A program made the position numbers and the translations under genes. 64,000 nt of DNA. Origin: Escherichia coli (GTDB taxonomy: Bacteria; Pseudomonadota; Gammaproteobacteria; Enterobacterales; Enterobacteriaceae). A model generated the notes under the pieces. The model saw only the letters and a list, made by a program, of their open reading frames with translations, had not been told where the DNA came from and did not search any database. Location: assembly GCF_044324875.1 (NCBI RefSeq), contig NZ_CP172185.1; one strand, given 5' to 3'. Below, piece after piece: positions 9,237 to 49,896 of the stretch; the first letter of the stretch is position 1; every line of letters starts with the position of its first letter.

Positions 9237-9244
9237 TGACCAAT

Positions 9245-9271
9245 CGCGGGGCGTTCACGCCCCGCTTTCTT
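9245..9271 (+). terminator. Intrinsic terminator after dcuA
   Basis: GCGGGGCG-ttca-CGCCCCGC hairpin followed by TTTCTTT. Confidence 0.55.
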
Positions 9272-9351
9272 TCCCGCCGACTAACATCCTTCCCCCGTCC
9301 GTTGTATAGTGACCTCTCTCTTGCGGTTCCATCTGTTCTTGCGAGGTGTTT

Positions 9352-9690
9352 ATGCTTGATGAAAAAAGTTCGAATACCGCGTCTGTCGTGGTGCTATGTA
9401 CGGCACCGGATGAAGCGACAGCCCAGGATTTAGCCGCCAAAGTGCTGGCGGAAAAACTGGCGGCCTGCGCGACCTTGATCCCCGGCGCTACCTCTCTCTA
9501 TTACTGGGAAGGTAAGCTGGAGCAAGAATACGAAGTGCAGATGATTTTAAAAACTACCGTATCTCTCCAGCAGGCACTGCTGGAATGCCTGAAGTCTCAT
9601 CATCCATATCAAACCCCGGAACTTCTGGTTTTACCTGTTACACACGGAGACACAGATTACCTCTCATGGCTCAACGCATCTTTACGCTGA
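9352..9690 (+). CDS. cutA: Divalent-cation tolerance protein CutA
   Basis: ORF 9346..9690; [55 protein letters not shown]; overlaps dsbD start. Confidence 0.85.
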
Positions 9691-11363: not shown

Positions 11364-11375
11364 ACGACACTTGCA

Positions 11376-11975
11376 GTGGGAAAGACGGAGGAAAATAGCG
11401 TGCAACGTGAAGATGTACTGGGAGAAGCCCTGAAATTATTAGAATTACAAGGGATTGCCAACACCACGCTGGAGATGGTTGCTGAACGTGTGGATTATCC
11501 ACTGGACGAGCTGCGCCGCTTCTGGCCAGACAAAGAGGCAATCCTCTACGATGCGCTGCGTTATCTTAGCCAACAGATAGATGTCTGGCGTCGTCAGCTG
11601 ATGCTGGACGAAACGCAAACCGCCGAACAAAAGCTGCTGGCACGTTATCAGGCGTTATCGGAGTGCGTTAAAAACAACCGCTATCCGGGCTGTCTGTTTA
11701 TCGCTGCCTGTACGTTTTATCCCGATCCTGGCCACCCTATTCATCAACTGGCCGATCAGCAAAAAAGCGCGGCCTACGATTTCACCCACGAACTGTTAAC
11801 CACGCTGGAAGTTGACGATCCGGCGATGGTAGCAAAGCAGATGGAACTGGTGCTGGAAGGCTGTTTAAGCCGAATGCTGGTGAATCGCAGCCAGGCGGAT
11901 GTCGACACCGCACATCGGCTGGCAGAAGATATCCTGCGCTTCGCTCGCTGCCGCCAGGGTGGCGCACTGACCTGA
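11376..11975 (+). CDS. yjdC: TetR-family transcriptional regulator YjdC
   Basis: N-terminal HTH-like segment ([36 protein letters not shown]); last core gene before tRNA-Phe; true start may be the internal GTG at ~11400. Confidence 0.7.
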
Positions 11976-12081: not shown

Positions 12082-12157
12082 GCCCGGATAGCTCAGTCGG
12101 TAGAGCAGGGGATTGAAAATCCCCGTGTCCTTGGTTCGATTCCGAGTCCGGGCACCA
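12082..12157 (+). tRNA. pheU: tRNA-Phe (anticodon GAA)
   Basis: GCCCGGATAGCTCAGTCGGTAGAGCAGGGGATTGAAAATCCCCGTGTCCTTGGTTCGATTCCGAGTCCGGGCACCA; cloverleaf with GAA anticodon loop; pheU assigned from yjdC neighbourhood (sequence identical to pheV). Confidence 0.95.
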
Positions 12158-12354: not shown

Positions 12355-13617
12355 ATGGCACTGACTGACGCAAAAATCCGGGCTGCAAAGCACACTGACA
12401 AGGCTTATAAACTCACTGACGGGGCTGGCATGTTCCTGCTGGTACATCCTAATGGTTCCCGTTACTGGCGTCTCCGTTATCGCATTCTGGGTAAGGAGAA
12501 AACTCTGGCACTTGGTGTATACCCGGAGGTTTCTCTCTCCGAAGCTCGTACAAAACGGGATGAGGCCCGAAAACTGATTTCGGAGGGGATTGACCCTTGC
12601 GAACAGAAAAGAGCTAAAAAAGTAGTCCCTGATTTACAACTCTCTTTTGAACATATTGCACGACGCTGGCATGCCAGTAATAAACAATGGGCACAATCAC
12701 ACAGCGATAAGGTACTCAAAAGCCTCGAAACACACGTTTTCCCCTTTATCGGCAACCGGAACATCACAACACTCAATACCCCGGACCTGCTTATCCCTGT
12801 TCGTGCTGCAGAAGCTAAACAAATTTATGAAATCGCCAGTCGTCTGCAGCAAAGAATATCTGCTGTAATGCGTTATGCCGTACAGTCTGGCATCATCAGA
12901 TATAATCCTGCTCTGGATATGGCTGGCGCATTGACCTCTGTAAAACGACAGCATCGCCCCGCTCTTGATCTTTCACGTCTGCCTGAACTTCTGTCGCGTA
13001 TTAACAGTTATAAAGGTCAGCCTGTCACCCGGCTTGCTGTTATGCTGAATTTACTGGTTTTTATTCGCTCCAGTGAACTCAGATATGCCCGCTGGGCTGA
13101 AATTGATATTGACAATTCAATGTGGACTATTCCAGCCGAACGCAAACCTCTGCCAGGGGTAAAATTCTCACACCGGGGCTCCAAGATGCGAACACCACAT
13201 CTTGTGCCACTCAGCAAACAGGCTGTAGCCATACTGACAGAACTTCAGACATGGGCTGGTGAAAATGGTCTGATCTTTACGGGAGCACATGACCCGCGTA
13301 AACCAATCAGTGAAAATACCGTAAATAAGGCCCTCAGAGTGATGGGGTATGACACAACCAAGGAAGTCTGTGGCCATGGATTCCGGGCGATGGCGTGCAG
13401 TGCATTGATTGAATCAGGTTTGTGGTCCCGCGATGCTGTGGAACGTCAGATGAGCCATCAGGAGCGTAATGGTGTACGTGCTGCGTATATCCATAAAGCA
13501 GAACATCTGGAAGAACGTCGACTGATGCTACAGTGGTGGGCAGATTTTCTGGATGCGAACAGAGATAAGGGTATCAGCCCGTTTGAATATGCAAAGATTA
13601 ACAATCCATTAAAATAG
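12355..13617 (+). CDS. int: P4-type tyrosine integrase (island integrase adjacent to tRNA-Phe)
   Basis: 420 aa; MALTDAKIRAAKHTDKAYKLTDGAGMFLLVHPNGSRYWRLRYRILGKEKTLALGVYPEVSLSEARTKRDEARKL typical of P4-like integrase N-terminus; C-terminal catalytic region with HGFRA; located ~200 bp after tRNA. Confidence 0.9.
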   Translation: MALTDAKIRAAKHTDKAYKLTDGAGMFLLVHPNGSRYWRLRYRILGKEKTLALGVYPEVSLSEARTKRDEARKLISEGIDPCEQKRAKKVVPDLQLSFEHIARRWHASNKQWAQSHSDKVLKSLETHVFPFIGNRNITTLNTPDLLIPVRAAEAKQIYEIASRLQQRISAVMRYAVQSGIIRYNPALDMAGALTSVKRQHRPALDLSRLPELLSRINSYKGQPVTRLAVMLNLLVFIRSSELRYARWAEIDIDNSMWTIPAERKPLPGVKFSHRGSKMRTPHLVPLSKQAVAILTELQTWAGENGLIFTGAHDPRKPISENTVNKALRVMGYDTTKEVCGHGFRAMACSALIESGLWSRDAVERQMSHQERNGVRAAYIHKAEHLEERRLMLQWWADFLDANRDKGISPFEYAKINNPLK

Positions 13618-14068: not shown

Positions 14069-17000
14069 ATGGATGAAAATGCTTTAGGGTTTGCCTCATA
14101 CTGGCGCAACTCGCTTGCGGACGCTGAGTCAGGAAAGGGCAGTTTTGAACGGAAAGACGCCAAAAATTTCACTCACTGGCATGGGATAGCGGCGGGACGT
14201 CTTGACGAAGCGATTGTCAGTAAATTTTTTAAGGGAGAAAAAGACGATGTCGAAACGGTCGATGTCATCTTGCGCCCAAAAGTTTATTTCCGGTTACTGC
14301 AGCATGGTAAGGACCGTTCTGCAGGTGCGCCTGATATTGTTACCCCGATAGTGACGCCAGCCTTGCTAAGCCGTGAGGGTTTTTTATATCCGACGCCAGC
14401 GACCTCCATTCCCAGAGACCTGCTTGAACCTTTGCCAAAAGGAGCATTTTCGATTGGTGAGATTGGGCAGTATGACAAATACAAGACGACCCATACCACG
14501 TTCTCTATCAACTTTGATGACAGCGTTGATAAGACTGCCGAAACGGATGAAGAACGGGAAGAACGATATGCAGCCTTGCAGCAGGAGTGGCGTCAATATC
14601 TGGATGATTCAGAGAGGCTGCTGAAGAACGTTGCCGGCGACTGGATTAAAAATCCTGAGCAATATGAACTCGCTGAGCACGGTTATATTGTTAAAACGGC
14701 GCAATCTGGCGGTGCCAGTTTCCATATCCTTTCTCTTTATGATCACCTGCTTGTTTGCAATAAGGATGTGCCGCTCTTCAATCGATTCGCCTCGCGAGAG
14801 GTTCATGCTGCAGAGTCTTTGCTGGCCCCTGGAGCAAAATTCAGCGACAGGCTTGGACACTCCGGAGATAAGTTTCCGCTGGCAAAGGCTCAGCGCGATG
14901 CCTTAAGCCATTTTCTGGATGCTAAACATGGCGATATCCTTGCTGTTAATGGCCCTCCTGGAACCGGAAAAACCACGCTGGTGCTTTCTATCATCGCCAC
15001 GCAGTGGGCCAGAGCGGCTCTCGAAAAATCTGAGCCTCCGGTTATTATCGCGACTTCAACGAATAACCAGGCTGTAACGAACATTATTGAGGCATTCGGG
15101 AAAGACTTTTCGCAAGGTTCAGGTGCGATGGCCGGGCGATGGTTGCCAGAGCTGAAAAGCTTCGGCGCTTATTTTCCCTCAGGCAGCCGTAAAGCTGAAG
15201 CAGCCAAAAAATATCAAACTGAAGATTTCTTCAACCAGGTTGAGTCAAAAGAGTATGTAGAAGATGCACTGCTGTTTTATCTGGAAAAGGCTAAGGCAGC
15301 CTTTCCTGAAAAAGAGTGTTCATCCCCTGAAAAGGTCATTGAACTCCTGCATGGTCAGTTGGCAGCAAAATCCGAGCAACTGATAAGACTGAACGCAACA
15401 TGGCAAAAGTTAAGCCAGATTCGGGCTGCGCGTGAGCTTATTGCTAATGATATTGAGCAATATCTCAATAATTTAAATAAATTACTTTCCGGACAAGAAC
15501 AAAAAATCACTCTACTGAAGAGTGCTAAAACGGAATGGAAAAAATATCGCGCCGGTGAATCACTGATCTATTCATTATTTTCCTGGCTTCCGGCGGTTCG
15601 CAGTAAGCGACAGTACCAAATACAGCTGTTTCTCGAAGATAAATTAGGTGCGCTGATTGCAGGAAATCAATGGTCTGATCCTGAAACTATCGAACGTAAT
15701 ATTGATGGGCTGCTCAATTCCGCTGAGCGCGAGCAAACAACATACCGGCAGCAGATTGACTCCGCCCATGAAATCATTCTTAAAGAACAGCAGGCGGTTC
15801 AGGAGTGGCAGAGACTGGCTCTTGATTTAGGGTATGAGGGCGACGAGGAACTGAGCTTCTCACAGGCCGATGAACTGGCTGATACGCAGATTCGCTTCCC
15901 TGCATTTTTACTGACGACTCACTACTGGGAAGGTCGTTGGCTGATGGATATGGCCAGCATTGATGATCTGCAGGAAGAGAAGAAGAAAAAAGGCGCTAAA
16001 GGGGTAACCGCCCGTTGGCAACGTCGAATGAAACTCACTCCATGTGTGGTGATGACATGCTATATGCTGCCCGGCAATATGCAGATAAGTGAGCACAAAG
16101 GACAGCGTAAATTCGAGAAAAGTTATTTGTATGATTTTGCCGATTTACTCATTGTCGATGAAGCCGGGCAGGTGCTTCCTGAAGTGGCTGCTGCCTCGTT
16201 TGCATTAGCTAAGAAGGCATTAGTGATTGGCGATACGGAGCAGATCCCGCCAATATGGAGTATTGCTCCTGCGATTGATATCGGTAACATGCTGGCGGAA
16301 AAAATTCTGTCTGGCAGTACGCAAGAAGAGATTACCGAGAAATATACGGCAATCGCAGACCTTGGTAAAAGTGCCGCATCTGGCAGCGTTATGAAAATAG
16401 CGCAGTTTGCTTCGCGCTATCAATATGATCCCGAACTGGCTCGTGGTATGTACCTATATGAACACCGCCGGTGCTACGACAATATTATTGGATACTGTAA
16501 TACGCTCTGCTATCACGGTAAGTTGTTGCCTAAAAGAGGGCGTGAAGAGAGCAATTTAATGCCCGCAATGGGGTATCTCCATATTGATGGTAAAGGAGAG
16601 CTGGCAAGTAGTGGAAGTCGATATAATTTGCTTGAGGCTGAAACGATAGCGGTCTGGTTGGCAGAGAACCAGCAAAATATTGAAGCGCATTACGGTAAAT
16701 CGCTTCATGAAGTTGTCGGTATTGTGACGCCTTTTAGCGCTCAGGTATCCACTATCAAACAGGTGCTGGGCAAACAAGGTATCAGTACAGGCACGAATGA
16801 AAAGTCGCTCACAGTGGGCACCGTGCACTCTCTTCAGGGAGCGGAAAGAGCGATTGTGATATTCTCGCCAGTCTATTCAAAACATGAAGACGGCGGGTTT
16901 ATTGATAGCGATAACAGCATGCTGAATGTTGCAGTCTCCCGTGCGAAGGACAGTTTTCTGGTCTTCGGCGATATGGACCTGTTTGAGGTCCAGCCAGCCT

Positions 17001-17584
17001 CATCGCCACGGGGATTACTGGCAAAATACCTCTTTGAGTCAGAGAAGAATGCGCTCTCTTTTGATTATAAAGAGCGTAAGGATTTAAAAACCGCCGGGAC
17101 CAAAATCTACACACTTCATGGTGTGGAGCAACATGATAATTTCCTGAATCAGACATTTGAAAATACCAGTAAACACATCACGATAGTTTCTCCATGGCTG
17201 ACCTGGCAAAGGCTGGAGCAAACCGGTTTTCTTGATTCCATGATTGCGGCGTGTTCACGTGGAATTAACGTCACGATAGTCACTGACAGAAGCTACAACA
17301 CTGAACATAATGATTTTGAGAAGCGAAAAGAGAAGCAGCAGAACTTTAAAGCGGCGCTGGAGAAACTGAATGCGCTGGGTATTGCTACAAAGCTGGTAAA
17401 CCGTGTTCATAGCAAAATTGTTATTGGTGATGATGGTTTGCTGTGCGTGGGATCGTTCAACTGGTTTAGTGCGACACGGGAAGCGCGATATGAACGATAC
17501 GATACATCAATGGTTTATTGCGGTGATAACCTGAAGGGTGAGATTGAGGCTATTTATAATAGTCTTGAGAGGCGGCAGGTTTAG
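14069..17584 (+). CDS. Large fusion protein: unknown N-terminal domain + Upf1-like SF1 helicase core + C-terminal PLD-family (single HKD) nuclease domain; candidate defence protein
   Basis: 1171 aa; Walker A GPPGTGKT (~aa 295), Walker B/motif [11 protein letters not shown] (~aa 695), motif V-like [11 protein letters not shown], motif VI-like VAVSRAKD, then HSKIVIGDD (HxK(x)4D) near aa 1114; first cargo gene after island integrase. Confidence 0.9.
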
Positions 17585-25310: not shown

Positions 25311-25347
25311 GTAAGCGTACAGCGAGGGCCGTATTGACGGGGATGTG

Positions 25348-26886
25348 TTATTCAGCTGGCAGTGCTATGCGCCACGGAAGCAGTTCGCTGACCCGGTTGA
25401 CCGGCCAGTCTGCTATGACGCCAAGCACATGGCGAAGGTAGCTTTCTGGATCCACGTCATTCAGTTTGCACGTCCCTATCAGGCTGTACAGTAGCGCTCC
25501 CCGCTCACCACCATGGCCAGAGCCGAAGAACAGGAAGTTTTTACGACCCAGACTTACCGCCCGCAGGGCATTTTCAGCGATGTTGTTGTCGATTTCCACC
25601 CAGCCATCGTTCGCATAGTACGTCAGTGCCGGCCACTGGTTAAGTGCGTACGCGAACGCCTTCGCCAACTCTGAGTGTCGCGACAGGGTCTTCATCTTTT
25701 CACGCAACCAGCTTTCCAGGGATTTCAACAGCGGTTTCGTTTTTCGCTGACGTTCAGCAAGCCGCTGCTCTGCCGGCATTCCCCTTATATCCGCCTCTAT
25801 GGCGTACAACTGACCGATCTGCTCCAGGGCTTCTTCCGTCAGTGCTGACGGGATGCGGACGTGCACATCGTGGATCTTTCGGCGGGCATGAGCCCAGCAG
25901 GCAGCTTCCGTTATCCCACCATTGCGATACAGCTCGTTGAACCCGGCGTACGCATCCGCTTGCAGCACACCGCTGAAGCAAGCAAGATGAGTCTGCGGAT
26001 GGATGCCTTTTCTGTCCGGGCTGTAAGCGAACCACACTGCAGGTGCCAACGCTGACCCGGCATTGCGGTCATCACGAACATACGCCCACAACCGCCCGGT
26101 CTTCGTCTTCTTATTACCCGGCATCAGTACCTGGACCGGGGTATCATCGGCATGGAGTTTGCCGTCAGTCATGACATAGCCATGAAGCGCCTCTTCCAGC
26201 GGAGACAGCAGCCGGCAGCATGCATCCACCCAGCCCGACAGCAGTGAACGGCTCAGCTCCACACCTTGCCGGCCGTATATTTCTGACTGGCGATACAGCG
26301 GGGTGTGCTCTGCATACTTCGAGGTCAGCACGCGGGCCAGCAGCCCCGGTCCGGCGATACCCCGCTCGATGGGCCGCGAAGGTGCAGGTGCCTGCACGAT
26401 GGCATCGCACTGAGTACAGGCATGTTTTTCCCGTACCGTCCGGATAACCCGGAAGGCGCTACGCATCAACTCCAGCTGTTCGGCGGTATCCTCGCCCAGA
26501 TAGCTCAGTGAACCGCCGCAGTTCGGGCAGCACGGCGCCGCAGGCAACAGTCGCTTTTCGTCACGGGGTAGTGATTCAGGGAACGGCTTACGGATGCGGG
26601 TCTGACGCAACGGACGCTGTACTGCCGGGTCATACACCCTACCAGTCAGCGTATCGCTCTCTTTCTGAAGCCGGTTCAGATCGGCTTCCATTTGTGCGAT
26701 ACGGCGGGAGACTTTTTCGGAACGACTGCCGAAGTTCATCCGGCGGAGTTTATCCAGCTGCGCCTGCAGATGGTCTATTTCGCGCTCCCGGTTGCTCAGC
26801 TTTTCCTGCAGGGCGTGGATCAGCGCTTCCTGTTCGGCCAGGCGCTGTTTCAGCAGGAAGATGTCGTCAGAAGAGATGTCGTTCAT
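25348..26886 (-). CDS. tnpC: IS66-family transposase TnpC
   Basis: 512 aa; leucine-zipper-like N-terminus, CxxC zinc-finger-like motifs, DDE core. Confidence 0.85.
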
Positions 26887-26935
26887 AAGCCCGTATTTTA
26901 CCGGGCTTATTCTGTGACAACCAGGATAAAGAGAT

Positions 26936-27283
26936 TTACAGCATGGTCAGGGAGGTCAGCAGCCGCTTAGGCTGTCGCCAGTCGATACCTTCCAGCAGCA
27001 TCGCCAGCTGCGCCTGTGTAAGGAACACTTTGCCATCACGGGCTGACGGCCAGGCGAAGCGCCCACGCTCCAGCCGTTTGGTCAGGAGGCACAGTCCGTC
27101 ACCGGTGGACCACAGCAGTTTAACCTGACTGCCGCTGCGGCCCCGGAAAATGAAAACATGGCCGGACATGGGATCGTCTTTCAGCGCCGTCTGTACTTTC
27201 GCAGCCAGGCCGTTGAAGCCATTTCTCATATCGGTGATACCGGCAACCAGCCAAATTTTGGTCCCGGAAGGTAAAGGGATCAT
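26936..27283 (-). CDS. tnpB: IS66 Orf2 (TnpB)
   Basis: 115 aa; [31 protein letters not shown] typical IS66 Orf2. Confidence 0.85.
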
Positions 27284-27681
27284 CGCTTCAGTTCCTGTAT
27301 CAGCAGAGTCAGGAGCTTTTCGCTGACATTGCCATTGAAGCGGAGCGTCCCGTGCCGGAACGTTACCTCACAGCTGATACTGAGGGTTTCCGGGTCCTCT
27401 GCGAGCGATTCTGGCTGTTCGGCAGCTGCATCGAGAGTCACAGGAAGTAGCTGGGGGCTCTCTGAAGAAGGTAATAGCAGCTTTCCCTCGCGCCATTGTT
27501 GTCGCCATTTGAACAACAGATTGGCGTTAATGCCATTTTCAAGAGCAAGTTTTGAGATGGATATCCCGGGTTCACAGGAGGCAGCAACGAGCTGCTGTTT
27601 AAATTCGGGAGGATAATTAGGGCAGCCTTTTCGCCTGCCGGGAGTCACATTTTTCTGCATATCTGACACTTTGGTTCCCAC
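27280..27681 (-). CDS. tnpA: IS66 Orf1 (TnpA)
   Basis: 133 aa; overlaps tnpB start by 4 bp. Confidence 0.8.
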   Translation of the reverse strand: MGTKVSDMQKNVTPGRRKGCPNYPPEFKQQLVAASCEPGISISKLALENGINANLLFKWRQQWREGKLLLPSSESPQLLPVTLDAAAEQPESLAEDPETLSISCEVTFRHGTLRFNGNVSEKLLTLLIQELKR

Positions 27682-27748
27682 TACTTATTTGGTGGACACC
27701 ACTTTGTCTAATTCGTCAGATTCTGACCAGACGGTTCAGGCTGTACGC

Positions 27749-29833
27749 TTACGCCTGACCGGTGTCTCTGGTGACATATTCCGGAGCTCCGGAGAGAGTA
27801 AAGGTAACGCGATCATCGGCAGAAGCATCTCCATACTGCAGATGCCCGTCGTTGGGGATCATGGCCAGTTTGCCGTAATAGCGATACACATTGTATTCAT
27901 CCTGTGTATAGCCAAAGAAGGACTGATTATTCAGTTGTGAACCCGACAGGCTGACAAACTCGCTGGCAAGAAGATGACTTCCCGTATTATCCAGTTTGTT
28001 CGCGTCAATCAGCAGATTATTACCGGCCGAAATTCTGGCATCCCCCCCTGTTGCACCAACATCGACGCGTGTTGTGCCAGTCAGAAATTTCCGGGTGGCT
28101 CCCTTTTCAGTCGGAACGGCCCATGCCTCAAAACCACCACCGGCAGTACCGCTCCAGGACTTCACATAATATCCCCATCCATTTTCACCTAAATCGCCCA
28201 CTCTGACTGAAACAGAATTTACACCATCAGGTACTGCGACATTCTCAACCGGAATGTATGATTTTGTCTCATTTATACCCTCCCGCTGATTCAGTAAATG
28301 TCCGGTTCTGATGGTGATATCACCGCGGGTGGTTTCGATATTCCCGGAGGTATTAATCACTTCAGCATTCGCGGCACCACTGACATCTTTCTGCATCACC
28401 AGGCTGTAACCCGCCAGCATATCGCCGTGATGGTTCCGGATGGTGCTGGCAAACAGCGAGAGGTTATTGCCCGCATACAACAGTGCGGTGTTAATGACTG
28501 CCCCGGCGACCGTTAACACCAGACTACCCGTCGTGCCGGTAAAACCGTCGAGAGTGATATCTCCCCTGCTGGTCAGGCTGACGTCCCCGCCTGCCTGCAG
28601 GCTGCCGCTGGCATTCATCGCAATCCCGCTGCCGCTCAGTGCCGTGGTGCCGTTGCCGGCGGTCAACTGGCCATTGTTGGTCAGCCTGCCTGCAGCATTC
28701 AGCGTGATACCGTTGCCCTGCAATGTGGCGCCATTGGTAATATCACCCTGGCTGCTGACGGAGAGTTGTTTATTCGCGGCGATAACGCCCTGTGCGGTCA
28801 AACCACGTGTGAGCTTCAGCGTCAGGTTACCGAGTGCAACCAGCTGGCCCGCGCCGCTGAGCGAGACCATTTCAGCAAGCATATCACCGCCGCTGAACAC
28901 CTTCCCGCCGGCGTTGTTCAGGCTGTTCCCTTTTATTGTCAGGCCCTGATTACCCAGCAGCGTGCCGCTGTTGGTGATGGTCTGCGTGTTGACGTTCAGT
29001 TGTGCAGCCTGGAACAGGCCACGGTTGGTCAGACTGTTACCTGTGAGCGTTGCCTGATTCGCCGCCATCACAGTGCCATTACCGGCAAGCTTCGCCACGT
29101 TCAGCAGCAGGTCAGTGGCCTGTAGCCAGCCACTGCCACTGTAGTCCGGCGTGGTGAACGTCAGCTCACCGCCGGAAAGAATCTTGCCACTGTTGTGGGC
29201 CTGCGTTGCCGCGCTGAGCGTGGTTTTACCGTTGCCCTGAATGGTGCCGTCATTAGTCAGCACAGGTGCAGAAAGCGCTGATACGTTCTGACTGAGAAGC
29301 ACACCGCTGGTCTGGTTGGTCAGGGCATTCAGCAATGTAAGAGTCAGCCCGCTGTCGCCCTGCACACGACCTGAGTTGGTCAGCGAACTGGCGGTGATTC
29401 GGTTATCCGCCCCCTGAAGCTGCCCACTATTGCTGATGTCTCTGGCGTTGACGTTTAATGTACCGCCTGTCAGCATTTTACCGTGCTGTTGCAGATTACC
29501 ACTGAGTGTCACATTCAGGCTGTTAACACCACTGATTTCGCCACCGTTGCTGAGCGAATCACCATTCACTTCCAGCGTCTTCGCGCTGATTAATCCCTTG
29601 TTACCCAGCACTTTCCCGGTAAGGCGGGCATCGCCCAGGGCGGTAATTTTGCTGCCGGTGGCAGCAATAACATCGCCACTCAGGGTCAGAGCCAACTCCA
29701 GCGCACTCTGAACAGCACCGCTGCTGGTCAGGCTGCTGGCATCCAGAGTAATGTTCTGCCCCTGAATCCGGCCGCTGTTGGTCACATCTCCTGCGCTCAG
29801 CGTCAGCGAGTTCTGGCTCGATCCGCGCACCAC
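27749..29833 (-). pseudogene. Fragment of a large filamentous-haemagglutinin/CdiA-like repeat protein (two-partner-secretion exoprotein), truncated at both ends
   Basis: 694 aa of degenerate ~20-aa repeats rich in TLSG/LTNSG/IQGNG/NAL motifs; no signal peptide or TPS domain; 3' end abuts IS66 copy 1; 5' end abuts the GC-rich block. Confidence 0.6.
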
Positions 29834-40099: not shown

Positions 40100-41301
40100 G
40101 GGGGATGGTGATAAGCGGGTTTCGATGTTGAGCGTAGGGTTTAGGGATTGGGACTGTGTTTCGGAGAGGATTTCGTGGTTGATCAATGATTGGTCGTGGC
40201 TAGGTTAAAGGACTTATTTATTGATTGTTTTGATATTGATGCGAAGGCCTGACTCAAACATGCGATTTAACCTCATGATTTAAAATTGTTAATAATAAAC
40301 AACACCATCCTATACCAACACAGATACCAACACGAAAAATCACTGGTTTTCGGCATCGAACCAGGACAATCAGGTCCTGATTGAGATACCGAGCTCTGTT
40401 ACTCGTCATCTGCCTCGACAGGCTCCATTGCATCAAGTGGTACTCGCACCATCGCGATAGATCCAATCCGGATAAAAGCATCTTCCCCATCTATATCGGT
40501 TAACTGATATCGCTCACTTGATGCCGGATAATTGTGTCGATTGGCAACAGTGTACTCTTTCGTACAGCCAGAATGTGGCAGACTGAGGTGGAATAGATAA
40601 CGTCCGTATGCCCGCTGACCACCTCCGGGCGGGAGAGTGTGGTATCTGACATCATCATTTTTCCTTTTGGTTTATAAACGAAAACGCCAGCCGTATTCAG
40701 GCTGGCGTCAGGGTAATGAAGCGTGGTGAGTGATATTCACCGGTTCTGGTGCAGAAGCTGCAGATGACGCAGGGTACGGACATCCTCTCTGGCCTGTTCG
40801 ATACAGGGCAACAGTGCTGCCGATGTCAGTAGGCTATTTCCGGTTGATATACCCTGCCCGTAAATTACAGGGCAGGAATAGTATTATTAATTTCGGGAGA
40901 AGCTTAAGGTTGCCACATCGACAGTTTCATCACACAGGTTTTTGTCCTGAAATACTTTCTTATTTTTGACTTTAGCTAGCCATTGCCCGACATGAAGGGA
41001 GGGTACAGTGATGATACCGTCCTCATTACTTACAAAGGTAAGTTCTGCTTTATGAGCCGAATGTTTATGCTCTGCCGCATGAGTATGGCGGGATGATTTC
41101 AGATAACTGACAGAGTCAAGCTCCAGAGTGGCTCCGGCAAGCGGGGAAGTTTTATACAGAACTTTCAGCTTCACATCTTCACCGAAACGACTGATATCGG
41201 ATAACGGAATTAGACTGGCCCCCTGAATCTCCAGACAACCAGTATCACTTAAATAAGTGATAGTCTTAATACTAGTTTTTAGACTAGTCATTGGAGAACA
41301 G

Positions 41302-41667
41302 ATGATTGATGTCTTAGGGCCGGAGAAACGCAGACGGCGTACCACACAGGAAAAGATCGCAATTGTTCAGCAGAGCTTTGAACCGGGGATGACGGTCTCC
41401 CTCGTTGCCCGGCAACATGGTGTAGCAGCCAGCCAGTTATTTCTCTGGCGTAAGCAATACCAGGAAGGAAGTCTTACTGCTGTCGCCGCCGGAGAACAGG
41501 TTGTTCCTGCCTCTGAACTTGCTGCCGCCATGAAGCAGATTAAAGAACTCCAGCGCCTGCTCGGCAAGAAAACGATGGAAAATGAACTCCTCAAAGAAGC
41601 CGTTGAATATGGACGGGCAAAAAAGTGGATAGCGCACGCGCCCTTATTGCCCGGGGATGGGGAGTAA
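41302..41667 (+). CDS. insC: IS2 OrfA (InsC)
   Basis: [56 protein letters not shown]. Confidence 0.9.
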
Positions 41668-42530
41668 GCTTAGTCAGCCGTTGTCTCCGGGTGTCGCGTG
41701 CGCAGTTGCACGTCATTCTCAGACGAACCGATGACTGGATGGATGGCCGCCGCAGTCGTCACACTGATGATACGGATGTGCTTCTCCGTATACACCATGT
41801 TATCGGAGAGCTGCCAACGTATGGTTATCGTCGGGTATGGGCGCTGCTTCGCAGACAGGCAGAACTTGATGGTATGCCTGCGATCAATGCCAAACGTGTT
41901 TACCGGATCATGCGCCAGAATGCGCTGTTGCTTGAGCGAAAACCTGCTGTACCGCCATCGAAACGGGCACATACAGGCAGAGTGGCTGTGAAAGAAAGTA
42001 ATCAGCGATGGTGCTCTGACGGGTTCGAGTTCCGCTGTGATAACGGAGAAAAACTGCGAGTCACGTTCGCGCTGGACTGCTGTGACCGTGAGGCACTGCA
42101 CTGGGCGGTCACTACGGGCGGCTTCAACAGTGAAACAGTACAGGACGTCATGCTGGGAGCGGTGGAACGCCGCTTCGGCAACGAGCTTCCGGCGTCTCCA
42201 GTAGAGTGGCTGACGGATAATGGTTCATGCTACCGGGCTAATGAAACACGGCAGTTTGCCCGGATGTTGGGGCTTGAACCGAAGAGCACGGCGGTGCGGA
42301 GTCCGGAGAGTAACGGCATAGCAGAGAGCTTCGTGAAAACGATAAAGCGTGACTACATCAGTGTCATGCCCAAACCAGACGGGTTAACGGCAGCAAAGAA
42401 CCTTGCAGAGGCGTTCGAGCATTATAACGAATGGCATCCGCATAGTGCACTGGGTTATCGCTCGCCACGGGAATATCTACGGCAGCAAGCCAGTAATGGG
42501 TTAAGTGATAACAGGTGTCTGGAAATATAG
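41625..42530 (+). CDS. insD: IS2 OrfB (InsD) transposase, expressed by frameshift fusion with OrfA
   Basis: 301 aa, DDE integrase core; overlaps orfA in -1 frame. Confidence 0.9.
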
Positions 42531-43032
42531 GGGCAAATCCAGGAATGATTTCAAGCTCATCCCCTATTGGATACTGATAGAGTTGTGCTGGCATCTGCTG
42601 TTCACCAGGAATAAAAGATTTTGCATATTTAGTCACAAACTCACAGTATGCCACATCATTTCTGCCCTCCCGGCTGACAGGCTTCCATCCTGACGAGGTT
42701 CTCGACCAGTATCCCGGTTTCATTTTCGTTGACAGAACGTAGCTATTACCGTTGCCTGCAGTCTCAATTTTATAGACATAATCCGTGGATGTTGGCTTCA
42801 GCGTTATTGTCTCTTTCCCGTTATAAAGCCGGGGAGTTTCAAAGAAATCCCTTCTGTCAGGAATCGTGCCCTTTGAGGGGAAATTATGACCATAACCAAT
42901 CTCTGCGATAACGTTGTTCTCTGCCTGTTTGCCGGTAATCCAGACATCATGGGCCAGGACATGCCCCGATGCTGTCAGACAAAGAGCTAAGATATAGCCT
43001 GTATTTTTCATCATGATTTATTTCCTGAGAGG

Positions 43033-45003
43033 TTACCACTGATAACGGGTATAAAGACTGACAGTTCGGCCTGAAAGCGGCACACCTTTGCCATTCATGG
43101 CAAGCTTGTTGAAGGCATTATCCAGAGTTACTGACGCCTCAAAGCCTTTAACACTTACAGGCTTATAAGACAGTGAAAAGGAATGTATGGCATAGCCAGC
43201 CTGATAGGAGTCGCCTTTTTTCACATGCGTGGCTGATGCTGAAAGTTCAGCACGCCATCCGGCATAAACGCCTCTATGACCAACAGGTATGCTGATGTCA
43301 CTGATAAGTGTGTCAGGATTGCCGGAGCCCAGCCATTCCCTGCTGCTGGCATCCATACTTTCCGTCCGGTTATAAGAAAGCACCCAGTCAACATAATCAG
43401 ACTGGTAATTTCCCTGCATATCCCATCCCCAGATACGGGCCCGGGATACATTATAAGAATAAGAACGCATCCGTTTCATATCCACGCGTGTGGCAATATA
43501 GTTTCTGGCATCCGTTCCGAAATATCCGCCTTTTAACTGCAGCCGGTCATTGTCTGTAAGCAGGCCATCCAGTTGAATACCTGCGCCAATCTCACGGGTG
43601 ATGTTATTTTCTGGTTTCAGATTAAGGTTAGGAACCCAGTAATTGGGTTTACCCTTGCGGTAAAAATGTACATCATCCCTGTACATTTCTGCCATTGTGG
43701 GCGCTCGGAATGCAGAGGATATGGAGCCGTACATCATCAGCCAGTCTGTCGGTGAGACTGAAATCGCCGCCCTTGGGGACAGGCGTTCGGCTTTCAGTTC
43801 TCCGGCACGGGGATTGAAGCTCTTGTACCGGTCATAGCGGGAACCGACGATAATGTTAACAGGGTAGCTTTTCATTGTCATTTCATCCTGGAAATACAAC
43901 GATGTAAAGTCAATATTTCCTTCCGGATATAGTGTGGCAGAGCCTTCTGGCTTCTGCTGCTGACGGTAATATTCAGCGCCATAACTTAACTGATGGGCTC
44001 CCGGAAAAATCAGAGTATGACTCCTGTTGACAACATTAACACCGGAGGTTCTGTTGTTTCTCCATTCTGCCGTTTTGTTGTGACCGTTTGTCTTGATAGT
44101 GATATCACTGAGATATAACGTTGACTGTACATTGATGAGGCTGTTATCCACAGGAGCGTACTGGTACCAGAACTGTACGTCATTTTGTACTGTTTTTCTG
44201 TCACGCAGGCCGCTGTCACCATGTGTCTGAGTGGGATTGCCCGGTTCAGTGGTGTTATTCCGGTAGAGACGCAAGCTGGCACCTGCTTTGTTACTGTCTG
44301 TTATACCGACAGAGCCTTTCGCAAACAGGGCTGCAGGTTTTTCCTTGTTAGGTGCGCGCTCACCATCACTTTGATAGATATTACCTCTTTTACGCATAAT
44401 GACAGAAAGGAGCGCATCTGTTTTTCCGGTTTTACCGAACCAGGTGAGCCCCGAGCCTGTGCTGTGGTCACCACTGGCAATATTTCCCCACAGACTTAAA
44501 CCGTTTGTCTCTCCGGGGGGAAGGAAATCTGCTGCATCGGCAGTTCTGAAGTCCACTACACCTCCCAGCCCGCCACTGCCGTACAGACTGGAGTTTGGCC
44601 CGCGGACAACTTCGATACGTTTGACAAGAGCCGGATCCAGATAAGTGCCACTGCTTTTTGCCATGTCACTAAGTTGGCGGACGCCGTCAACAAGAACAAG
44701 TACCCCGCTTTTGTCATAGCCGCGTAGATTAAAGGTCTGCCCATTGGTCCGTCCTGCACCAGTCTGGCTGAGACCGGCAACACCTTTCAGCATGCCGGCC
44801 GATGTAACCGCATTCTGACTCCACGGTGTGTCATTCGTGACGACACTGACCATCGACGGCGTTTCAAATACCGTGTTCTGATTTCCTGTCGCGACAATGG
44901 TGATTGTATCTTTAGCCATAGAAGAATGACTGGTCGCTGCCTGTAGTCCCACCGGGACTATAATTAATGTACAAATGACAGTTCTGATTACATTCATATA
45001 CAT
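43033..45003 (-). CDS. TonB-dependent outer-membrane receptor
   Basis: 656 aa; signal peptide; plug-domain TonB-box-like region DTITIVATGNQ; C-terminal ...TRYQW terminal aromatic. Confidence 0.8.
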   Translation of the reverse strand: MYMNVIRTVICTLIIVPVGLQAATSHSSMAKDTITIVATGNQNTVFETPSMVSVVTNDTPWSQNAVTSAGMLKGVAGLSQTGAGRTNGQTFNLRGYDKSGVLVLVDGVRQLSDMAKSSGTYLDPALVKRIEVVRGPNSSLYGSGGLGGVVDFRTADAADFLPPGETNGLSLWGNIASGDHSTGSGLTWFGKTGKTDALLSVIMRKRGNIYQSDGERAPNKEKPAALFAKGSVGITDSNKAGASLRLYRNNTTEPGNPTQTHGDSGLRDRKTVQNDVQFWYQYAPVDNSLINVQSTLYLSDITIKTNGHNKTAEWRNNRTSGVNVVNRSHTLIFPGAHQLSYGAEYYRQQQKPEGSATLYPEGNIDFTSLYFQDEMTMKSYPVNIIVGSRYDRYKSFNPRAGELKAERLSPRAAISVSPTDWLMMYGSISSAFRAPTMAEMYRDDVHFYRKGKPNYWVPNLNLKPENNITREIGAGIQLDGLLTDNDRLQLKGGYFGTDARNYIATRVDMKRMRSYSYNVSRARIWGWDMQGNYQSDYVDWVLSYNRTESMDASSREWLGSGNPDTLISDISIPVGHRGVYAGWRAELSASATHVKKGDSYQAGYAIHSFSLSYKPVSVKGFEASVTLDNAFNKLAMNGKGVPLSGRTVSLYTRYQW

Positions 45004-45129
45004 TCATATACATCCGAAAACATATGTCGGTATTAAAATGTTATAACATAACATTTTATTTATGCAACTCTGATTATGTAGCGTTCAGTGATGAACTGTT
45101 AATAATATTCTGTCGATCCGCTAAGTGTC

Positions 45130-45778
45130 AGTGTATGCGGTAAGCCTGCCCTTGAGTCACTGTTTGGCAACTGCTACATCTAAGGTGACGTTATCCGCTG
45201 ACATCGATATTCCCGTGGTGAGAGATAACCTAACGCACTATGCGGGTGGTTCTCATTGTAATTCTCGAACGCCTATGCAAGGTTATGCAATGCCGTTATT
45301 ACATTCGGTTTCTGTATGAACGCAATGTAGTCTTCCTTCATCGTTTTCACTAACCTTTCTGCCATTCCATTACTCTGAGAGCTGCTGATTGCCGTTGTGC
45401 AGGGCTCCAGATCCAACTCTCTGGCGAACTGCCGTGTTTCATGCGCTCTATACGCTGAACCGTTATCTGTCAACCACCGGATGGACTGTTCCGGTACTTT
45501 ATCGCCAAAGAGTTTTTCTATCGCTCCTAACATCACATCCTGCACTGTCGCTTTATTGTAACCTCCCGTATTGGATGCCCAGTCGATAGCTTCACGATCG
45601 CAACAGTCCAGAGCGAACGTAACCCGGACTTTTTCGCCATCATCGCAACCGAACTCAAAGCCATCAGAACATCAACGCTGGTCGCTTTCCTTACCGATAT
45701 TCGGCCTTTATGTTCCCGCTGCGGTCGTGATGGTTTGTCATGTAACAACAGGATATTTTCGCTCATTATCCGGTAAAC
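45130..45778 (-). mobile_element. IS2-like (IS3-family) orfB remnant, separated from its orfA part by IS66 copy 2
   Basis: ...[76 protein letters not shown]... parallels IS2 InsD; frame breaks present. Confidence 0.6.
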
Positions 45779-45809
45779 GGTAAGCGTCAACGGAGCACCG
45801 TATTGACGC

Positions 45810-47423
45810 TTATTTATTGGTGAGTACTACGTTCCATGGCAGGAGTTCATCAACTCGGTTGGAAGGCCATTCCGGCAGTACGCTCAGGATATGGCGCAGA
45901 TACGCTTCCGGATCGATACCGTTCAGACGGCAGGTGCCGATCAGCCCGTACAACAGTGCTCCACGCTCGCCGCCGTGATCGCTGCCAAAGAACATAAAGT
46001 TTTTCTTTCCGAGACAGACTGCACGAAGCGCTCTTTCCGCAGCATTATTATCCGCCTCCGCCAGACCGTCATCACTGTAATAACAGAGGGCATCCCACTG
46101 ATTCAGTACATAGCTGAACGCTTCGCCCAGTCTGGATTTTTTCGACAGCGTACCATTCTTCTCCACCATCCATTCATGCAGCGACGTCAGTAACACTTTG
46201 CTTCGCTGCTGCCTGACGGCAAGACGCTCTGACTCCGCTAATCCCCGTATTTCATCCTCGATGGCGTACAGTTCACTGATTCGCTTCAGGGCTTCTTCTG
46301 CCGTCGCACTTTTGCTGCTGATGTATACATCGTGGATTTTTCGCCGGGCATGGGCCCAGCACGCAACTTCTGTCAGTGCACCACCTTCACGTTCTGCACT
46401 GAACAACCTGTCGTAACCTGTGAACGCATCCGCCTGCAGGATACCCCGGAAGGGGCGGAGGTGTTGCTCCGGGTGTTTCCCCTGCCGGTTCGGCGAGTAC
46501 GCGAACCAGACCGCTGGAGGAGATGACGAACCCACATTGCGATCATCCCGGACATACGTCCAGATACGCCCTGTTTTCGCCTTTTTCTGACCCGGTGCCA
46601 GTACCTTTACCGGTGTGTCATCAGTGTGAACCTTGCGGGTGTTCATTACATAACGGTACAGGGCATCATTCACCGGTGTCATTAACTGGCAGCACGCGTC
46701 AACCCAGTTGGAGAGTAAGGCCCGGCTCAGTTCGACACCCTGGCGGGCAAAGATTTCACTCTGACGATACAGTGGCAGATGTTCGCAGTATTTTCCCGTT
46801 AACACGCGGGCAAGTAATCCGGGGCCCGCGATACCACGCTCTATCGGGCGGGACGACGCCGGTGCTTCAACAATACAGTCACATTTTGTACAGGCTTTTT
46901 TTACCCGTTCTGTGCGGATCACTTTCAGGGCACTGCTCACCAGTTCCAGCTGTTCAGCGCTGACTTCCCCCAGATAATCCAGCTCACCGCCACACTCCGG
47001 GCAACAGCTTTCTTCTGGCTCCAGGCGGTGTATTTCACGGGGAAGGTGTGCCGGTAACGGACGACGATGGCGCGACTGTCGCAACTGGCGGGGAACCTGA
47101 GGATCGTCTTCCCGCCCACTGTAACGATCGCTGTCCTGTTCACGTTGTTTCAGCAGAGCCTCAGCCAGTTCAACTTCACGACGCAGTTTTTCAGAACGGG
47201 GACCGAACAGCATCCGGAGCAGTTTTTCTATCTGAGCCCGCAGATGTTCTATTTCCCGTTCATCTTCTTCGATCTTTTCTTCGGCACGTGTCAGTGCAGA
47301 GCGCAGGAAGGCTTCCCTCTCTTCAACCAGACTCAGTTGCTGGTCTTTCTGACGGAGGGCTTCAGCCTGCTCAGAGAGCAATCTTTCCAGCTCTGCGATG
47401 CGAATGAGGTATTTCTGACTCAT
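45810..47423 (-). CDS. tnpC: IS66-family transposase TnpC (copy 2)
   Basis: 537 aa; colinear with copy 1 TnpC but diverged. Confidence 0.85.
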   Translation of the reverse strand: MSQKYLIRIAELERLLSEQAEALRQKDQQLSLVEEREAFLRSALTRAEEKIEEDEREIEHLRAQIEKLLRMLFGPRSEKLRREVELAEALLKQREQDSDRYSGREDDPQVPRQLRQSRHRRPLPAHLPREIHRLEPEESCCPECGGELDYLGEVSAEQLELVSSALKVIRTERVKKACTKCDCIVEAPASSRPIERGIAGPGLLARVLTGKYCEHLPLYRQSEIFARQGVELSRALLSNWVDACCQLMTPVNDALYRYVMNTRKVHTDDTPVKVLAPGQKKAKTGRIWTYVRDDRNVGSSSPPAVWFAYSPNRQGKHPEQHLRPFRGILQADAFTGYDRLFSAEREGGALTEVACWAHARRKIHDVYISSKSATAEEALKRISELYAIEDEIRGLAESERLAVRQQRSKVLLTSLHEWMVEKNGTLSKKSRLGEAFSYVLNQWDALCYYSDDGLAEADNNAAERALRAVCLGKKNFMFFGSDHGGERGALLYGLIGTCRLNGIDPEAYLRHILSVLPEWPSNRVDELLPWNVVLTNK

Positions 47424-47453
47424 GACCGTTTTTATAATGCGGTCAGGAGTTTT

Positions 47454-47804
47454 TTACAACATTGTCAGTGAGTTACGGCTGGATGTTTTTGGCTGACGCC
47501 AGTCCAGCTTATCGAGGAGCATTGCCAGTTGCGAGCGGGTAATGGATACCTTGCCGTCACGTACCGCAGGCCAGATAAACTGGCCTTCCTCCAGGCGTTT
47601 GGTGAACAGGCACAGACCATCAGCATCAGCCCAAAGAATTTTGACGGTGTCACCCCGTCGGCCACGGAAGATAAACAGGTGACCGGAGAAGGGATTATCA
47701 TTCAGCACATGTTGTACCTGTTCTCCCAGTCCGTTGAAGGATTTACGCATATCGGTAACGCCGGCAACGAGCCAGATACGGGTACCTGATGGGAGTGAGA
47801 TCAT
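47454..47804 (-). CDS. tnpB: IS66 Orf2 (TnpB, copy 2)
   Basis: 116 aa; MISLPSGTRIWLVAGVTDMRKSFNGLGEQVQ. Confidence 0.85.
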   Translation of the reverse strand: MISLPSGTRIWLVAGVTDMRKSFNGLGEQVQHVLNDNPFSGHLFIFRGRRGDTVKILWADADGLCLFTKRLEEGQFIWPAVRDGKVSITRSQLAMLLDKLDWRQPKTSSRNSLTML

Positions 47805-48226
47805 CTTCCCCTCCCGGTCAGTTCACGGATCAACACCGTGAGCAGCTCTGGCGATGGATTTTCCAGCGTCATGTTACCGTGACGGAATTCCACCTTGCAG
47901 GAACTGGCACTGACTCTGGTCTGAGTGGAAGTGGATAAAGACGGCGCAATGGCCGCCACAGGTTCTTTCTGCTCATCCGGCGTTATTTCTACAGGTAATA
48001 ATTCAACGCCAGTGTCAGAAGAGGTCGTTACCGGAAGACGCCGCGAAACACGCCCTTCGTTCTGCCAGAGCCTGAGCCATTTGAAAATAACATTATCATT
48101 GACGCCATTTTCACGTGCAATCTGTGCAACACAAGCTCCAGGTTGTGATGCCAGTTCCACCATACGAAGTTTGAATTCATTCGAATAGTTTTTACGAGGT
48201 TCTTTTCGCCAGTCCTGTAATTCCAT
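47801..48226 (-). CDS. tnpA: IS66 Orf1 (TnpA, copy 2)
   Basis: 141 aa; overlaps tnpB start. Confidence 0.8.
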   Translation of the reverse strand: MELQDWRKEPRKNYSNEFKLRMVELASQPGACVAQIARENGVNDNVIFKWLRLWQNEGRVSRRLPVTTSSDTGVELLPVEITPDEQKEPVAAIAPSLSTSTQTRVSASSCKVEFRHGNMTLENPSPELLTVLIRELTGRGR

Positions 48227-48419
48227 ACTTAGATGTCCGTCTATATCAGATGGGCGTCTAAGTTACCAATTCTCGTCTGATGGCTACATACGGCGGTCAG
48301 TTTACGCTTACGGTAAACGCGCTTTGCATTCACTAACGGTAGTCCTTCATTTAGGGACTGCCGCCTGAGTATCGCCCAGAACACGGCTTACCGGGGCTAT
48401 TCCTTGTCCGAAGGTAACA

Positions 48420-48700
48420 AGGGCACATGCGCTATCCATTTTCGCGATTGCGCATACTCCACCACTTCTTTGAGGATCTAAACTTCCATGGTTTTTTACC
48501 CAGCAAGAGCTGTAACTCTTTTATTTGTTTTATAGCGGCAGGCAGTTCTGAGGCAGGAACGACACCCTCTCCTGAAGCAACAGCAGTGAGACTTCCTTCC
48601 AGAGATTGTTTTTCCACTTAAACAACAGGCAGGGCTGAATACAACGCAAACGCGCCACATGTGACACCGCCATGCCAGGCTCCATTGTCTGCTGAATAAT
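48420..48700 (-). mobile_element. IS2-like orfA remnant (upstream half of the element split by IS66 copy 2)
   Basis: ...[36 protein letters not shown]... parallels IS2 InsC. Confidence 0.55.
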
Positions 48701-49896
48701 GCCAATTTTTTCCTGAGGAGTTTTACGTTTACGAAGCTACAGCCCCGGCAAAGTTCCAGTCATCTCAAAATTAGAACCAGTGTCAGACATATATCCAAGC
48801 CTGTCTCTTATTTTAAGATACATCCACTATCTGGCGTTTCAAGGGGCTGGTCCAGCTACAAATATTATTGAAAGAAATTTTTATGAAAACGAAGCTTTTT
48901 ACGATTTCTATCGGCATTGATGTAATATAGAAGAGTTATATAAATTATTCAAATCAAATTTTCTATTGAATATTTTCATTCACAGAGTGAGAAAGATGTA
49001 AAATAAAAATACAGGCTCATATATTATTACTTAACCTTACATGGATATCCTGAAATGACATTAATTATTAAGATAATAACGTTTTCATCGGTAGTAGTAG
49101 AAATAAACAAAATTTTAATTTCAAAAACTGCTTGTTTCTCGTAGTGAGGTACTTGTCTTTACTGATTCGGGTAACAGGAAAACATTTAAAATCATTCTGT
49201 TGCGCTCTTTCTGAGAGGCTGATTGCAAAATGGCATCTGAATCGATCGCAGTTGTATGACTCAGCGAGTAAGGCCAGGGAGGTGTTACCCACGAAAATAT
49301 GTACGGCCCAGAACGCGCTGGAACTCTTTTGATGCTCCAGCAAGAACTTAACCGAATGCCATTGGTACGCTGCCCCACAGAAAATTCCGTCACTAATGGC
49401 GGTAGCCGACAGATTCACATGGCGTTACCGCAGTAAACCAAGATGGATCTTGATTGCGTCCTCAACAGACAACATATCTGCTTTGGACAACGAGCCAATA
49501 TGTGTTTTGAGACAGGACTTATCCGCCGCCATAATCTGCTCTACAATCGCTTTGCTGCTCTGACACCTACGGTCACAACAGCCTCACTTGGATACACTCG
49601 CTCTGTGTTACTGGTCAGAGGAACGACGACTACTCGAGCGAGGTTCCTGTTTGCTGCGTCATTGCTCACGATCACTGCCGGACATGTCTTGCGGATTTCA
49701 CTGTCAACAGCAGGATCAAATTCAATCCACCACGTCTCACCTGTGCCGTCACTGCTCTGTCATCTTTCTAACACTTTACTGTCTAACACATGTAATAAAA
49801 AAGTTATTTTTCTGCAATTCGGGCATGATATTTAATCCCACGAGCATGAAACGTGTGAATTCGCTCATCAGGTACAACAAGCAAGAGAGATAAACG

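Follow-up and report, generated by a model that had tools for sequence, protein, structure and literature searches.

A complete copy of ISEc23, an insertion sequence of the IS66 family, lies within an older, already dead ISEc48-like element of the IS3 family in the stretch of Escherichia coli DNA that we analysed (the window, 64,000 nucleotides of contig NZ_CP172185.1). The arrangement is best explained, with a probability of about 97%, by a single simple transposition of ISEc23 into orfB of that element with duplication of an 8-bp target. The initial annotation had proposed an IS66-family element nested in an IS2-like element, and this proposal was borne out by the ends of the insert, the duplication, the colinear host and a natural empty site. 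The features of the locus, together with a nearby IS2, are listed below.

41211-42541: intact IS2 with a 5-bp duplication, GGAAT
45140-45779, minus strand: 3' portion of the IS2-group (ISEc48-like) host, by alignment to ISEc48; outer boundary accurate to about 10 bp
45772-45779, no strand: copy 1 of the duplication, GGTAAACG, host sequence inside the orfB codons R-V-Y-R
45780-48311, minus strand: complete ISEc23 (IS66 family), 2532 bp, by full-length match to annotated copies
about 45780-45803 and 48288-48311: terminal imperfect inverted repeats of ISEc23
45810-47423, minus strand: tnpC, open, IS66-family DDE transposase of 537 aa (Pfam DDE_Tnp_IS66, 1.5e-97)
47454-47804, minus strand: tnpB, IS66 Orf2-type accessory protein of 116 aa, identical to the reference (Pfam TnpB_IS66, 1.1e-36)
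47801-48226, minus strand: tnpA, IS66 accessory HTH protein of 141 aa, identical to the reference (Pfam HTH_Tnp_1, 5.1e-12)
48312-48319, no strand: copy 2 of the duplication, GGTAAACG, adjoining the ISEc23 end
48320-48861, minus strand: 5' portion of the IS2-group (ISEc48-like) host, by ISEc48 alignment and by tblastn with IS2 OrfA and OrfB
48320-48378, minus strand: orfB N-terminal remnant (tblastn, IS2 OrfB)
about 48379/48380, minus strand: 148-bp internal deletion in the host at the start of orfB (ISEc48 alignment)
about 48397-48790, minus strand: orfA remnant with two 1-bp deletions and two stops (tblastn, IS2 OrfA)
about 48820-48861, minus strand: orfA-side terminal inverted repeat of the host (ISEc48 alignment)

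The insert matched copies annotated by PGAP as ISEc23 with 100% coverage and 99.8-99.9% identity (2093 records at 99% or above), and it is on this near-identity that the name used here is based. Of the 24 outermost positions of its termini, 20 are complementary (GTAAGCGTCAACGG... and GTAAGCGTAAACTG...), and the inverted repeats start with GTAAGCG. Because the same termini, GTAAGCGTCAACGGAG ... GTCAGTTTACGCTTAC, also delimit the five other ISEc23 copies examined, located at four different sites and each flanked by its own perfect 8-bp duplication, the boundaries of the element are unambiguous. The PGAP-annotated ISEc23, present in thousands of genomes including those of E. coli 042 and 2014C-4135, has the same length of 2532 bp, the same termini and the same layout tnpA (141 aa)-tnpB (116 aa)-tnpC (537 aa) at 99.8% nucleotide identity; TnpA and TnpB are identical, and insert and annotated element both generate an 8-bp target duplication. 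The three genes are consecutive on one strand, with tnpA and tnpB overlapping by 4 bp, and all of them are open, in agreement with the earlier description of a complete IS66-family element. The TnpC product also contains the zf-IS66, LZ_Tnp_IS66 and IS66 C-terminal domains (Pfam), and it scored 446.8 bits on the IS66 transposase model NF033517 of NCBIfam, above the curated cut-off of 180. Compared with a consensus built from the five reference copies, the insert shows six nucleotide differences, five of which are non-synonymous in TnpC (T36R, R69L, T75P, P190S and P396A with respect to the common WP_000080195.1-type sequence), and judging from these changes the element may no longer be fully active. 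Our search of the literature on ISEc23 returned inventories only.

The element had been labelled the second IS66 copy of the stretch, which is right as to the family and wrong as to the element. The other IS66-family element of the window (about 25311-27750) shares only 64% identity with the ISEc23 insert (blastn) and so cannot be a copy of the same IS, and a repeat search across the whole window (seed 14, repeats of 200 bp or more) detected no further copy of ISEc23.

The 8-bp duplication reported in the initial annotation was found intact on both sides of the insert, with GGTAAACG at 45772-45779 and 48312-48319. This octamer occurs four times on the plus strand of the window, so its presence alone is uninformative and it is its position that counts; with the ends of the element fixed, the chance of identical abutting octamers is 4^-8, or about 1.5e-5. 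A passage of PMC6778807 that cites Machida 1984 reports an 8-bp duplication for IS66. The excision that had been suggested, of 45779 to 48319, has the correct end and a start displaced by one base, and the segment to be removed is 45780 to 48319 (2540 bp).

When the flanks were rejoined in this way, they formed one IS3-family element, as the earlier reading had anticipated; it is colinear with ISEc48, and its OrfB frame is continuous. In a global alignment the two elements remain colinear all the way from the inverted repeat beside orfA to the degenerate opposite end, the tblastn matches to the IS2 OrfA and OrfB proteins are ordered and on the same strand, and a single in-frame tblastn HSP covering residues 72-126 of IS2 OrfB spans the rejoined junction. 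OrfB-like sequence runs on the minus strand at 45207-45779 and resumes at 48320-48378. The same-strand remnants described on either side of the insert were confirmed, except that the right flank, which had been assigned to orfA only, also carries the N-terminal part of orfB.

The host spans about 45140 to 48861 with ISEc23 included. Within its 3' portion lie the C-terminal two thirds of the orfB remnant (the rve/DDE integrase core), which contain two in-frame stops and have lost 1 bp, together with a degenerate terminal inverted repeat; residues 123-284 of IS2 OrfB align to 45692-45207 with 68.5% identity (tblastn), and the Pfam rve match is weak. At the opposite end the orfA-side inverted repeat, TAGCTGGACCAGCCCCTTGAAACGCCAGA, is recognisable by comparison with those of ISEc48 and IS2. 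PGAP annotates the equivalents of the 3' and 5' portions in strain LH50-c as a DDE-type integrase pseudogene and as a 'transposase, frameshifted' pseudogene, respectively. Overall, instead of two intact frames linked by one programmed -1 frameshift, the host has reading frames broken by the 148-bp deletion, three 1-bp deletions, one 3-bp deletion and four in-frame stops, and on the strength of these lesions the host is a pseudogene remnant that has long been dead.

With respect to ISEc48 (e.g. NZ_CP065616.1, 144416-145700), the host is colinear over its full length at about 89% nucleotide identity (range 88-90%), with similarity in the orfA-side inverted repeat, orfA, orfB and the far end, but it is missing 148 bp where orfB begins, has the additional 1-bp and 3-bp deletions and the four in-frame stops, and shows a degenerate far inverted repeat and no visible target duplication. 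Since annotated copies of ISEc48 and of other IS3-family elements are about 88-90% identical to the host, we regard it as an ISEc48-like relative rather than as ISEc48 proper. IS2 belongs to the same family and group, and it has a related inverted-repeat pattern and 68% protein identity in OrfB over the DDE core, but the nucleotide identity of the host to the IS2 of the window is only about 70%. Hence the designation of a pre-existing IS2-like host holds at the level of the IS2 group, with the qualification that this host is not IS2 itself and was already a long-dead pseudogene. No target duplication of the host, such as a matching pentamer, was found next to its estimated ends at about 45140 and 48861; one side reads CAAAT and the far end is degenerate. 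Because of this degeneration near 45140, the flank on that side depends on where the end is placed, and the boundaries of the host are approximate.

The uninterrupted form of the host exists in nature. The rejoined host (1215 bp) gave a single ungapped match of at least 99% identity in at least 133 E. coli records, with 99.6% ungapped identity in many genomes, and many E. coli carry the empty allele at this very locus of the chromosome. APEC O2-211, one of the strains with an empty site along with IMT5155, matches base for base across the junction; it has one GGTAAACG and colinear flanks of 7919 bp (99.6% identity). We considered whether two ISEc23 copies could instead have undergone homologous recombination, or some other rearrangement could have occurred, joining flanks from different IS2-like elements. 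IS66-family copies mediate such events elsewhere (PMC6778807), and the window is rich in insertion sequences, with the intact IS2 and the other IS66-family element mentioned above. Nevertheless, recombination predicts unlike flanking octamers and the observed ones are identical, and the flanks rejoin base-perfectly to the allele found uninterrupted at the same locus in those 133 or more records. A recombinational origin is thus refuted by the identical duplication and the exact empty site, and we assign it a practically negligible probability.

The comparison with the empty allele also orders the events under the simple transposition of ISEc23. The rejoined host and the empty allele differ by five substitutions and no indels, and the uninterrupted alleles share the 148-bp deletion, the frameshifts and all stops but one, so that these lesions are older than the insertion.

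Among 5426 complete genomes of E. coli, the occupied junction was detected in two, LH50-c and ECCNB12-2, both from chicken. The LH50-c chromosome (NZ_CP100500.1, 894688-898788) matches the full 4101 bp of the locus at 99.9% and the window over 14.6 kb at 99.86%, diverges upstream of about 42540 of the window, and lacks the IS2 that the window carries in a DUF4198 gene. The LH50-c copy of ISEc23, at the same site, has in common with that of the window four of the six differences from the consensus. In ECCNB12-2 (NZ_CP033635.1), the interior of ISEc23 was later destroyed through the insertion of ISEc45 and of a member of the IS3 family. As the junctions and the duplication in both strains are identical to those of the window, they derive from one and the same insertion event, and the sequences indicate, by inference, a single origin of the insertion. 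A further candidate, in strain A12 (three joined pieces that together cover 88%), was rejected as an occupied site; there, ISEc23 is juxtaposed with a pseudogene of the IS3 family and an IS110 element in an unrelated arrangement. The earlier description of the insertion as relatively recent is supported, in a relative sense only, by the perfect duplication, the three open ORFs and the occupancy of 2 in 5426 genomes.

These genomes also bear on whether the nesting might be an assembly artefact, with a repeat collapsed or misplaced at an IS boundary. Insertion sequences are a classic cause of misassembly; on the other hand, the left junction is 100% identical over 181 bp in the two independently assembled complete genomes and the right junction is kept in both, ECCNB12-2 retains both junctions despite its disrupted ISEc23 interior, and misassembly would not be expected to create a perfect 8-bp duplication. 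We therefore consider an artefact extremely improbable.

Taken together, the observations are best explained by one transposition, in which an active ISEc23 (tnpA-tnpB-tnpC) entered the orfB region of an older ISEc48-related member of the IS2 group. Gap repair after staggered target cleavage would have doubled the 8-bp GGTAAACG, if the chemistry is as presumed. The host, which lies on a genomic island of the pheV/pheU type in an E. coli lineage that is avian-associated, had been inactivated beforehand by the 148-bp deletion, frameshifts and stop codons, and with a host already inactive the insertion was presumably selectively neutral and simply inherited.

A non-neutral explanation, in which ISEc23 prefers IS2-group targets or the insertion regulates the neighbouring heme-receptor gene, appears very unlikely. 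In favour of a preference, a second independent nesting of ISEc23 in IS2, inside the terminal inverted repeat of IS2 and with the duplication ATATTTCC, is found in strain 042 and in three porcine strains (ETEC1747, ETEC1731 and CV839-06). Against it, most listed ISEc23 copies lie in unrelated genes, including those for CDI immunity, DUF905, traD, tssF and vat, the five duplications compared have no common consensus, and neutral accumulation also predicts nesting in dead insertion sequences. As for a regulatory effect, about 780 bp separate the insertion from the start codon of the receptor gene, and the sequence between them is unaltered. The narrower proposition that ISEc23 genuinely favours IS2-group DNA, based on the two independent nestings (in orfB here and in the IS2 inverted repeat of 042 and the three porcine strains), is unlikely as well, if somewhat less so. 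If it were true, target choice and not neutral survival would account for the nesting, and the successive layers of ISEc48-like element, ISEc23 and, in ECCNB12-2, ISEc45 and the IS3-family element would provide a relative clock for the poultry-associated lineage.

The locus is an ordinary nested insertion of an already known kind, and neither its mechanism nor its genes are new. It adds a further textbook case of simple insertion by an IS66-family element with an 8-bp duplication, of little import beyond annotation. For annotation, the two transposase pseudogene fragments beside ISEc23 should be described as one interrupted ISEc48-like fossil, and the locus, with both occupied and empty sites known, provides a clean presence/absence marker for a small chicken-associated lineage of E. 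coli.

Reading of window positions 44800-49300 together with a pattern check revealed a 2532-bp segment (45780..48311) bounded directly on both sides by GGTAAACG, as the initial annotation had claimed for an IS66-family element nested in an IS2-like one. The segment ends are imperfect inverted repeats (GTAAGCGTCAACGGAGCACCGTAT versus GTAAGCGTAAACTGACCGCCGTAT, 20 of 24 positions matching), and it contains three open ORFs, the 537-aa product scoring 446.8 bits on NCBIfam NF033517 (cut-off 180).

Features of the inserted element and its flanking duplication
45772-45779, duplication copy GGTAAACG
45810-47423, minus strand, 537-aa ORF (TnpC), Pfam LZ_Tnp_IS66, zf-IS66, DDE_Tnp_IS66 and IS66 C-terminal domain
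47454-47804, minus strand, 116-aa ORF (TnpB), Pfam TnpB_IS66
47801-48226, minus strand, 141-aa ORF (TnpA), Pfam HTH_Tnp_1
48312-48319, duplication copy GGTAAACG

In a megablast search of 5426 complete E. coli genomes, the element was a full-length match (99.8-99.9%) to sequences annotated as IS66-like element ISEc23 family transposase, TnpA and TnpB, with a best match of at least 99% in 2093 records. Five reference ISEc23 copies, occupying four different sites, were compared with their flanks; all had exactly the termini of the window copy and their own perfect 8-bp duplication (GGAAAGCT, ATATTTCC twice at one site, GTAATGCT and CTATTTTC). Therefore, the ISEc23 ends are fixed independently of the window and the duplication length is 8 bp, in agreement with that reported for IS66 (PMC6778807, citing Machida et al. 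1984). With the ends fixed, the chance of identical abutting octamers is about 1.5e-5. On every point that sequence can test, the insert conforms to ISEc23 and the IS66 family. It had been counted as a second IS66 copy; however, the other IS66-family element, at ~25311-27750 (minus strand; ORFs of 512, 115 and 133 aa), shares only ~64% identity with ISEc23 and is another member of the family. A 250-bp fragment at 61273-61522, ~70% identical to the ISEc23 tnpA end, resembles what is left of a further IS66-family element.

To reconstitute the host element, 45780..48319 was removed in silico (the initial coordinates were correct within one base, the proposed excision having started at 45779) and the rejoined flanks were translated on the minus strand. 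They encoded IS2-type OrfA and OrfB interrupted by stops and frameshifts, with one reading frame continuous across the junction. In tblastn searches with the intact IS2 of the window, OrfB residues 72-126 spanned the junction in one HSP (48378 to 45680), residues 123-284 matched 45692-45207, and OrfA matched 48733-48400. The nearest named relative found was ISEc48 (~88-90% nucleotide identity), and a global alignment showed colinearity with an ISEc48 copy (L004) between the inverted repeat on the orfA side (~48861) and the far end (~45140), which is degenerate. This alignment and the junction-spanning HSP bear out that the flanks form one colinear IS3-family element; since they rejoin colinearly, the counter-case of flanks that reconstitute no such element does not hold. 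By homology and colinearity the host is assigned to the IS2 group of the IS3 family, does not qualify as an intact member, and, at ~89% identity, is too divergent for the name ISEc48 or IS2.

Defects of the host element relative to ISEc48 (L004)
~48379/48380, 148-bp deletion
elsewhere in the element, three 1-bp deletions, one 3-bp deletion and four in-frame stops

Many E. coli chromosomes contain the rejoined 1215 bp at full length (100%), as one ungapped alignment at 99.6% (best match at least 99% in at least 133 records). In APEC O2-211, 81 bp across the junction were identical and contained one GGTAAACG, and the neighbourhood was colinear with the window over 7919 bp at 99.6% identity (in order, DUF4198 gene, TonB-dependent heme-type receptor, IS pseudogene, MazF/PemK fragment, ugpB paralogue, IS110 pseudogene and phytase-like esterase). 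A 44-aa ORF (49541-49675, minus strand), flanked by the IS fossil and the ugpB paralogue, is the counterpart of what related genomes annotate as a truncated toxin of the PemK/MazF family. The window host differs from the APEC O2-211 allele by five substitutions and zero indels, and a TAG stop at 48737-48739 is private to the window. With so few differences from the empty allele, the deletion, the frameshifts and all stops but one predate the arrival of ISEc23. The element in which ISEc23 landed was already dead.

DDE transposons generate target duplications by staggered target cleavage and repair; ISEc23 insertion would have cut the target 8 bp apart, repair yielding the duplication. The insert is complete, belongs to the IS66 family and has intact genes, canonical ends and an 8-bp duplication; relatives have a precise empty site. 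That the two flanking duplications are identical points to a simple insertion without later recombination between copies, a reasoning also used in PMC6778807. These duplications and the base-perfect empty site exclude recombination between IS copies as the origin of the structure. The simple transposition into a pre-existing IS proposed initially is supported.

The complete 4.1-kb nested structure was present in one complete genome, LH50-c (poultry faeces, Switzerland), at 99.9% identity. A 181-bp junction-specific query retrieved a second, ECCNB12-2 (chicken, China), which keeps both junctions, ISEc23 being reduced to its first ~220 bp and last 132 bp. There (locus L005 of NZ_CP033635.1, L005 positions 9001-11850), ISEc45 and an IS3-family element replace the ISEc23 interior, making three layers of nesting. 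The same junctions in two independent complete assemblies exclude an assembly artefact. The window and LH50-c ISEc23 copies have in common four differences from the five-copy consensus; between the two, three of 2532 bp differ, a level close to the 0.14% divergence over the aligned 14.6 kb. Most simply, the insertion happened once, in an ancestor shared by the members of a small lineage, which then diverged in the ordinary way. The description "relatively recent" is fair, and "very recent" would go beyond the data.

In E. coli 042 and ETEC1747, ISEc23 lies within an IS2 terminal inverted repeat (after TGGATTTGCCCCTATATTTCC) with the duplication ATATTTCC; this junction occurs in 4 complete genomes, an IS66-in-IS2 nesting independent of that in the window. 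This second nesting is the one observation favouring ISEc23 targeting or a regulatory role of the insertion, which is very improbable given that most other ISEc23 copies, among the matches listed, are in unrelated genes.

An intact IS2 (41211-42541, plus strand, 1331 bp, ends TAGACTGGCCCC... and ...GGGGCAAATCCA, perfect 5-bp duplication GGAAT) interrupts the DUF4198 gene adjoining the receptor gene. Because DUF4198 is uninterrupted (792 bp) in LH50-c and APEC O2-211, this IS2 is a further strain-specific insertion. IS2 and the ISEc48-like element are inverted (42206-42486 versus 45197-45477, 71% complementary) and flank the heme-receptor gene (43033-45003) and the truncated DUF4198 gene; this composite-transposon look is probably coincidental, since one arm is a fossil. 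A pheV/pheU-type genomic island seems to make up most of the window, given tRNA-Phe (12082-12157) directly followed by a 420-aa integrase-domain gene (12355-13617). Beside the integrase, a 1171-aa protein (14069-17584, plus strand) weakly resembles SF1 helicase-type anti-phage proteins, with scores below threshold (PLuB helicase-like 1.6e-24, ProA, Hhe), and is a possible defence gene product.

Nested IS insertions are commonplace, and the locus is already annotated in RefSeq. Relative to the consensus, six nucleotides of the window ISEc23 are changed, while its TnpA and TnpB keep the consensus sequence; five of the six changes are non-synonymous, all in TnpC (T36R, R69L, T75P, P190S and P396A), which may reflect relaxed constraint on this copy. 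As its target was already a pseudogene, we infer that the insertion was neutral.
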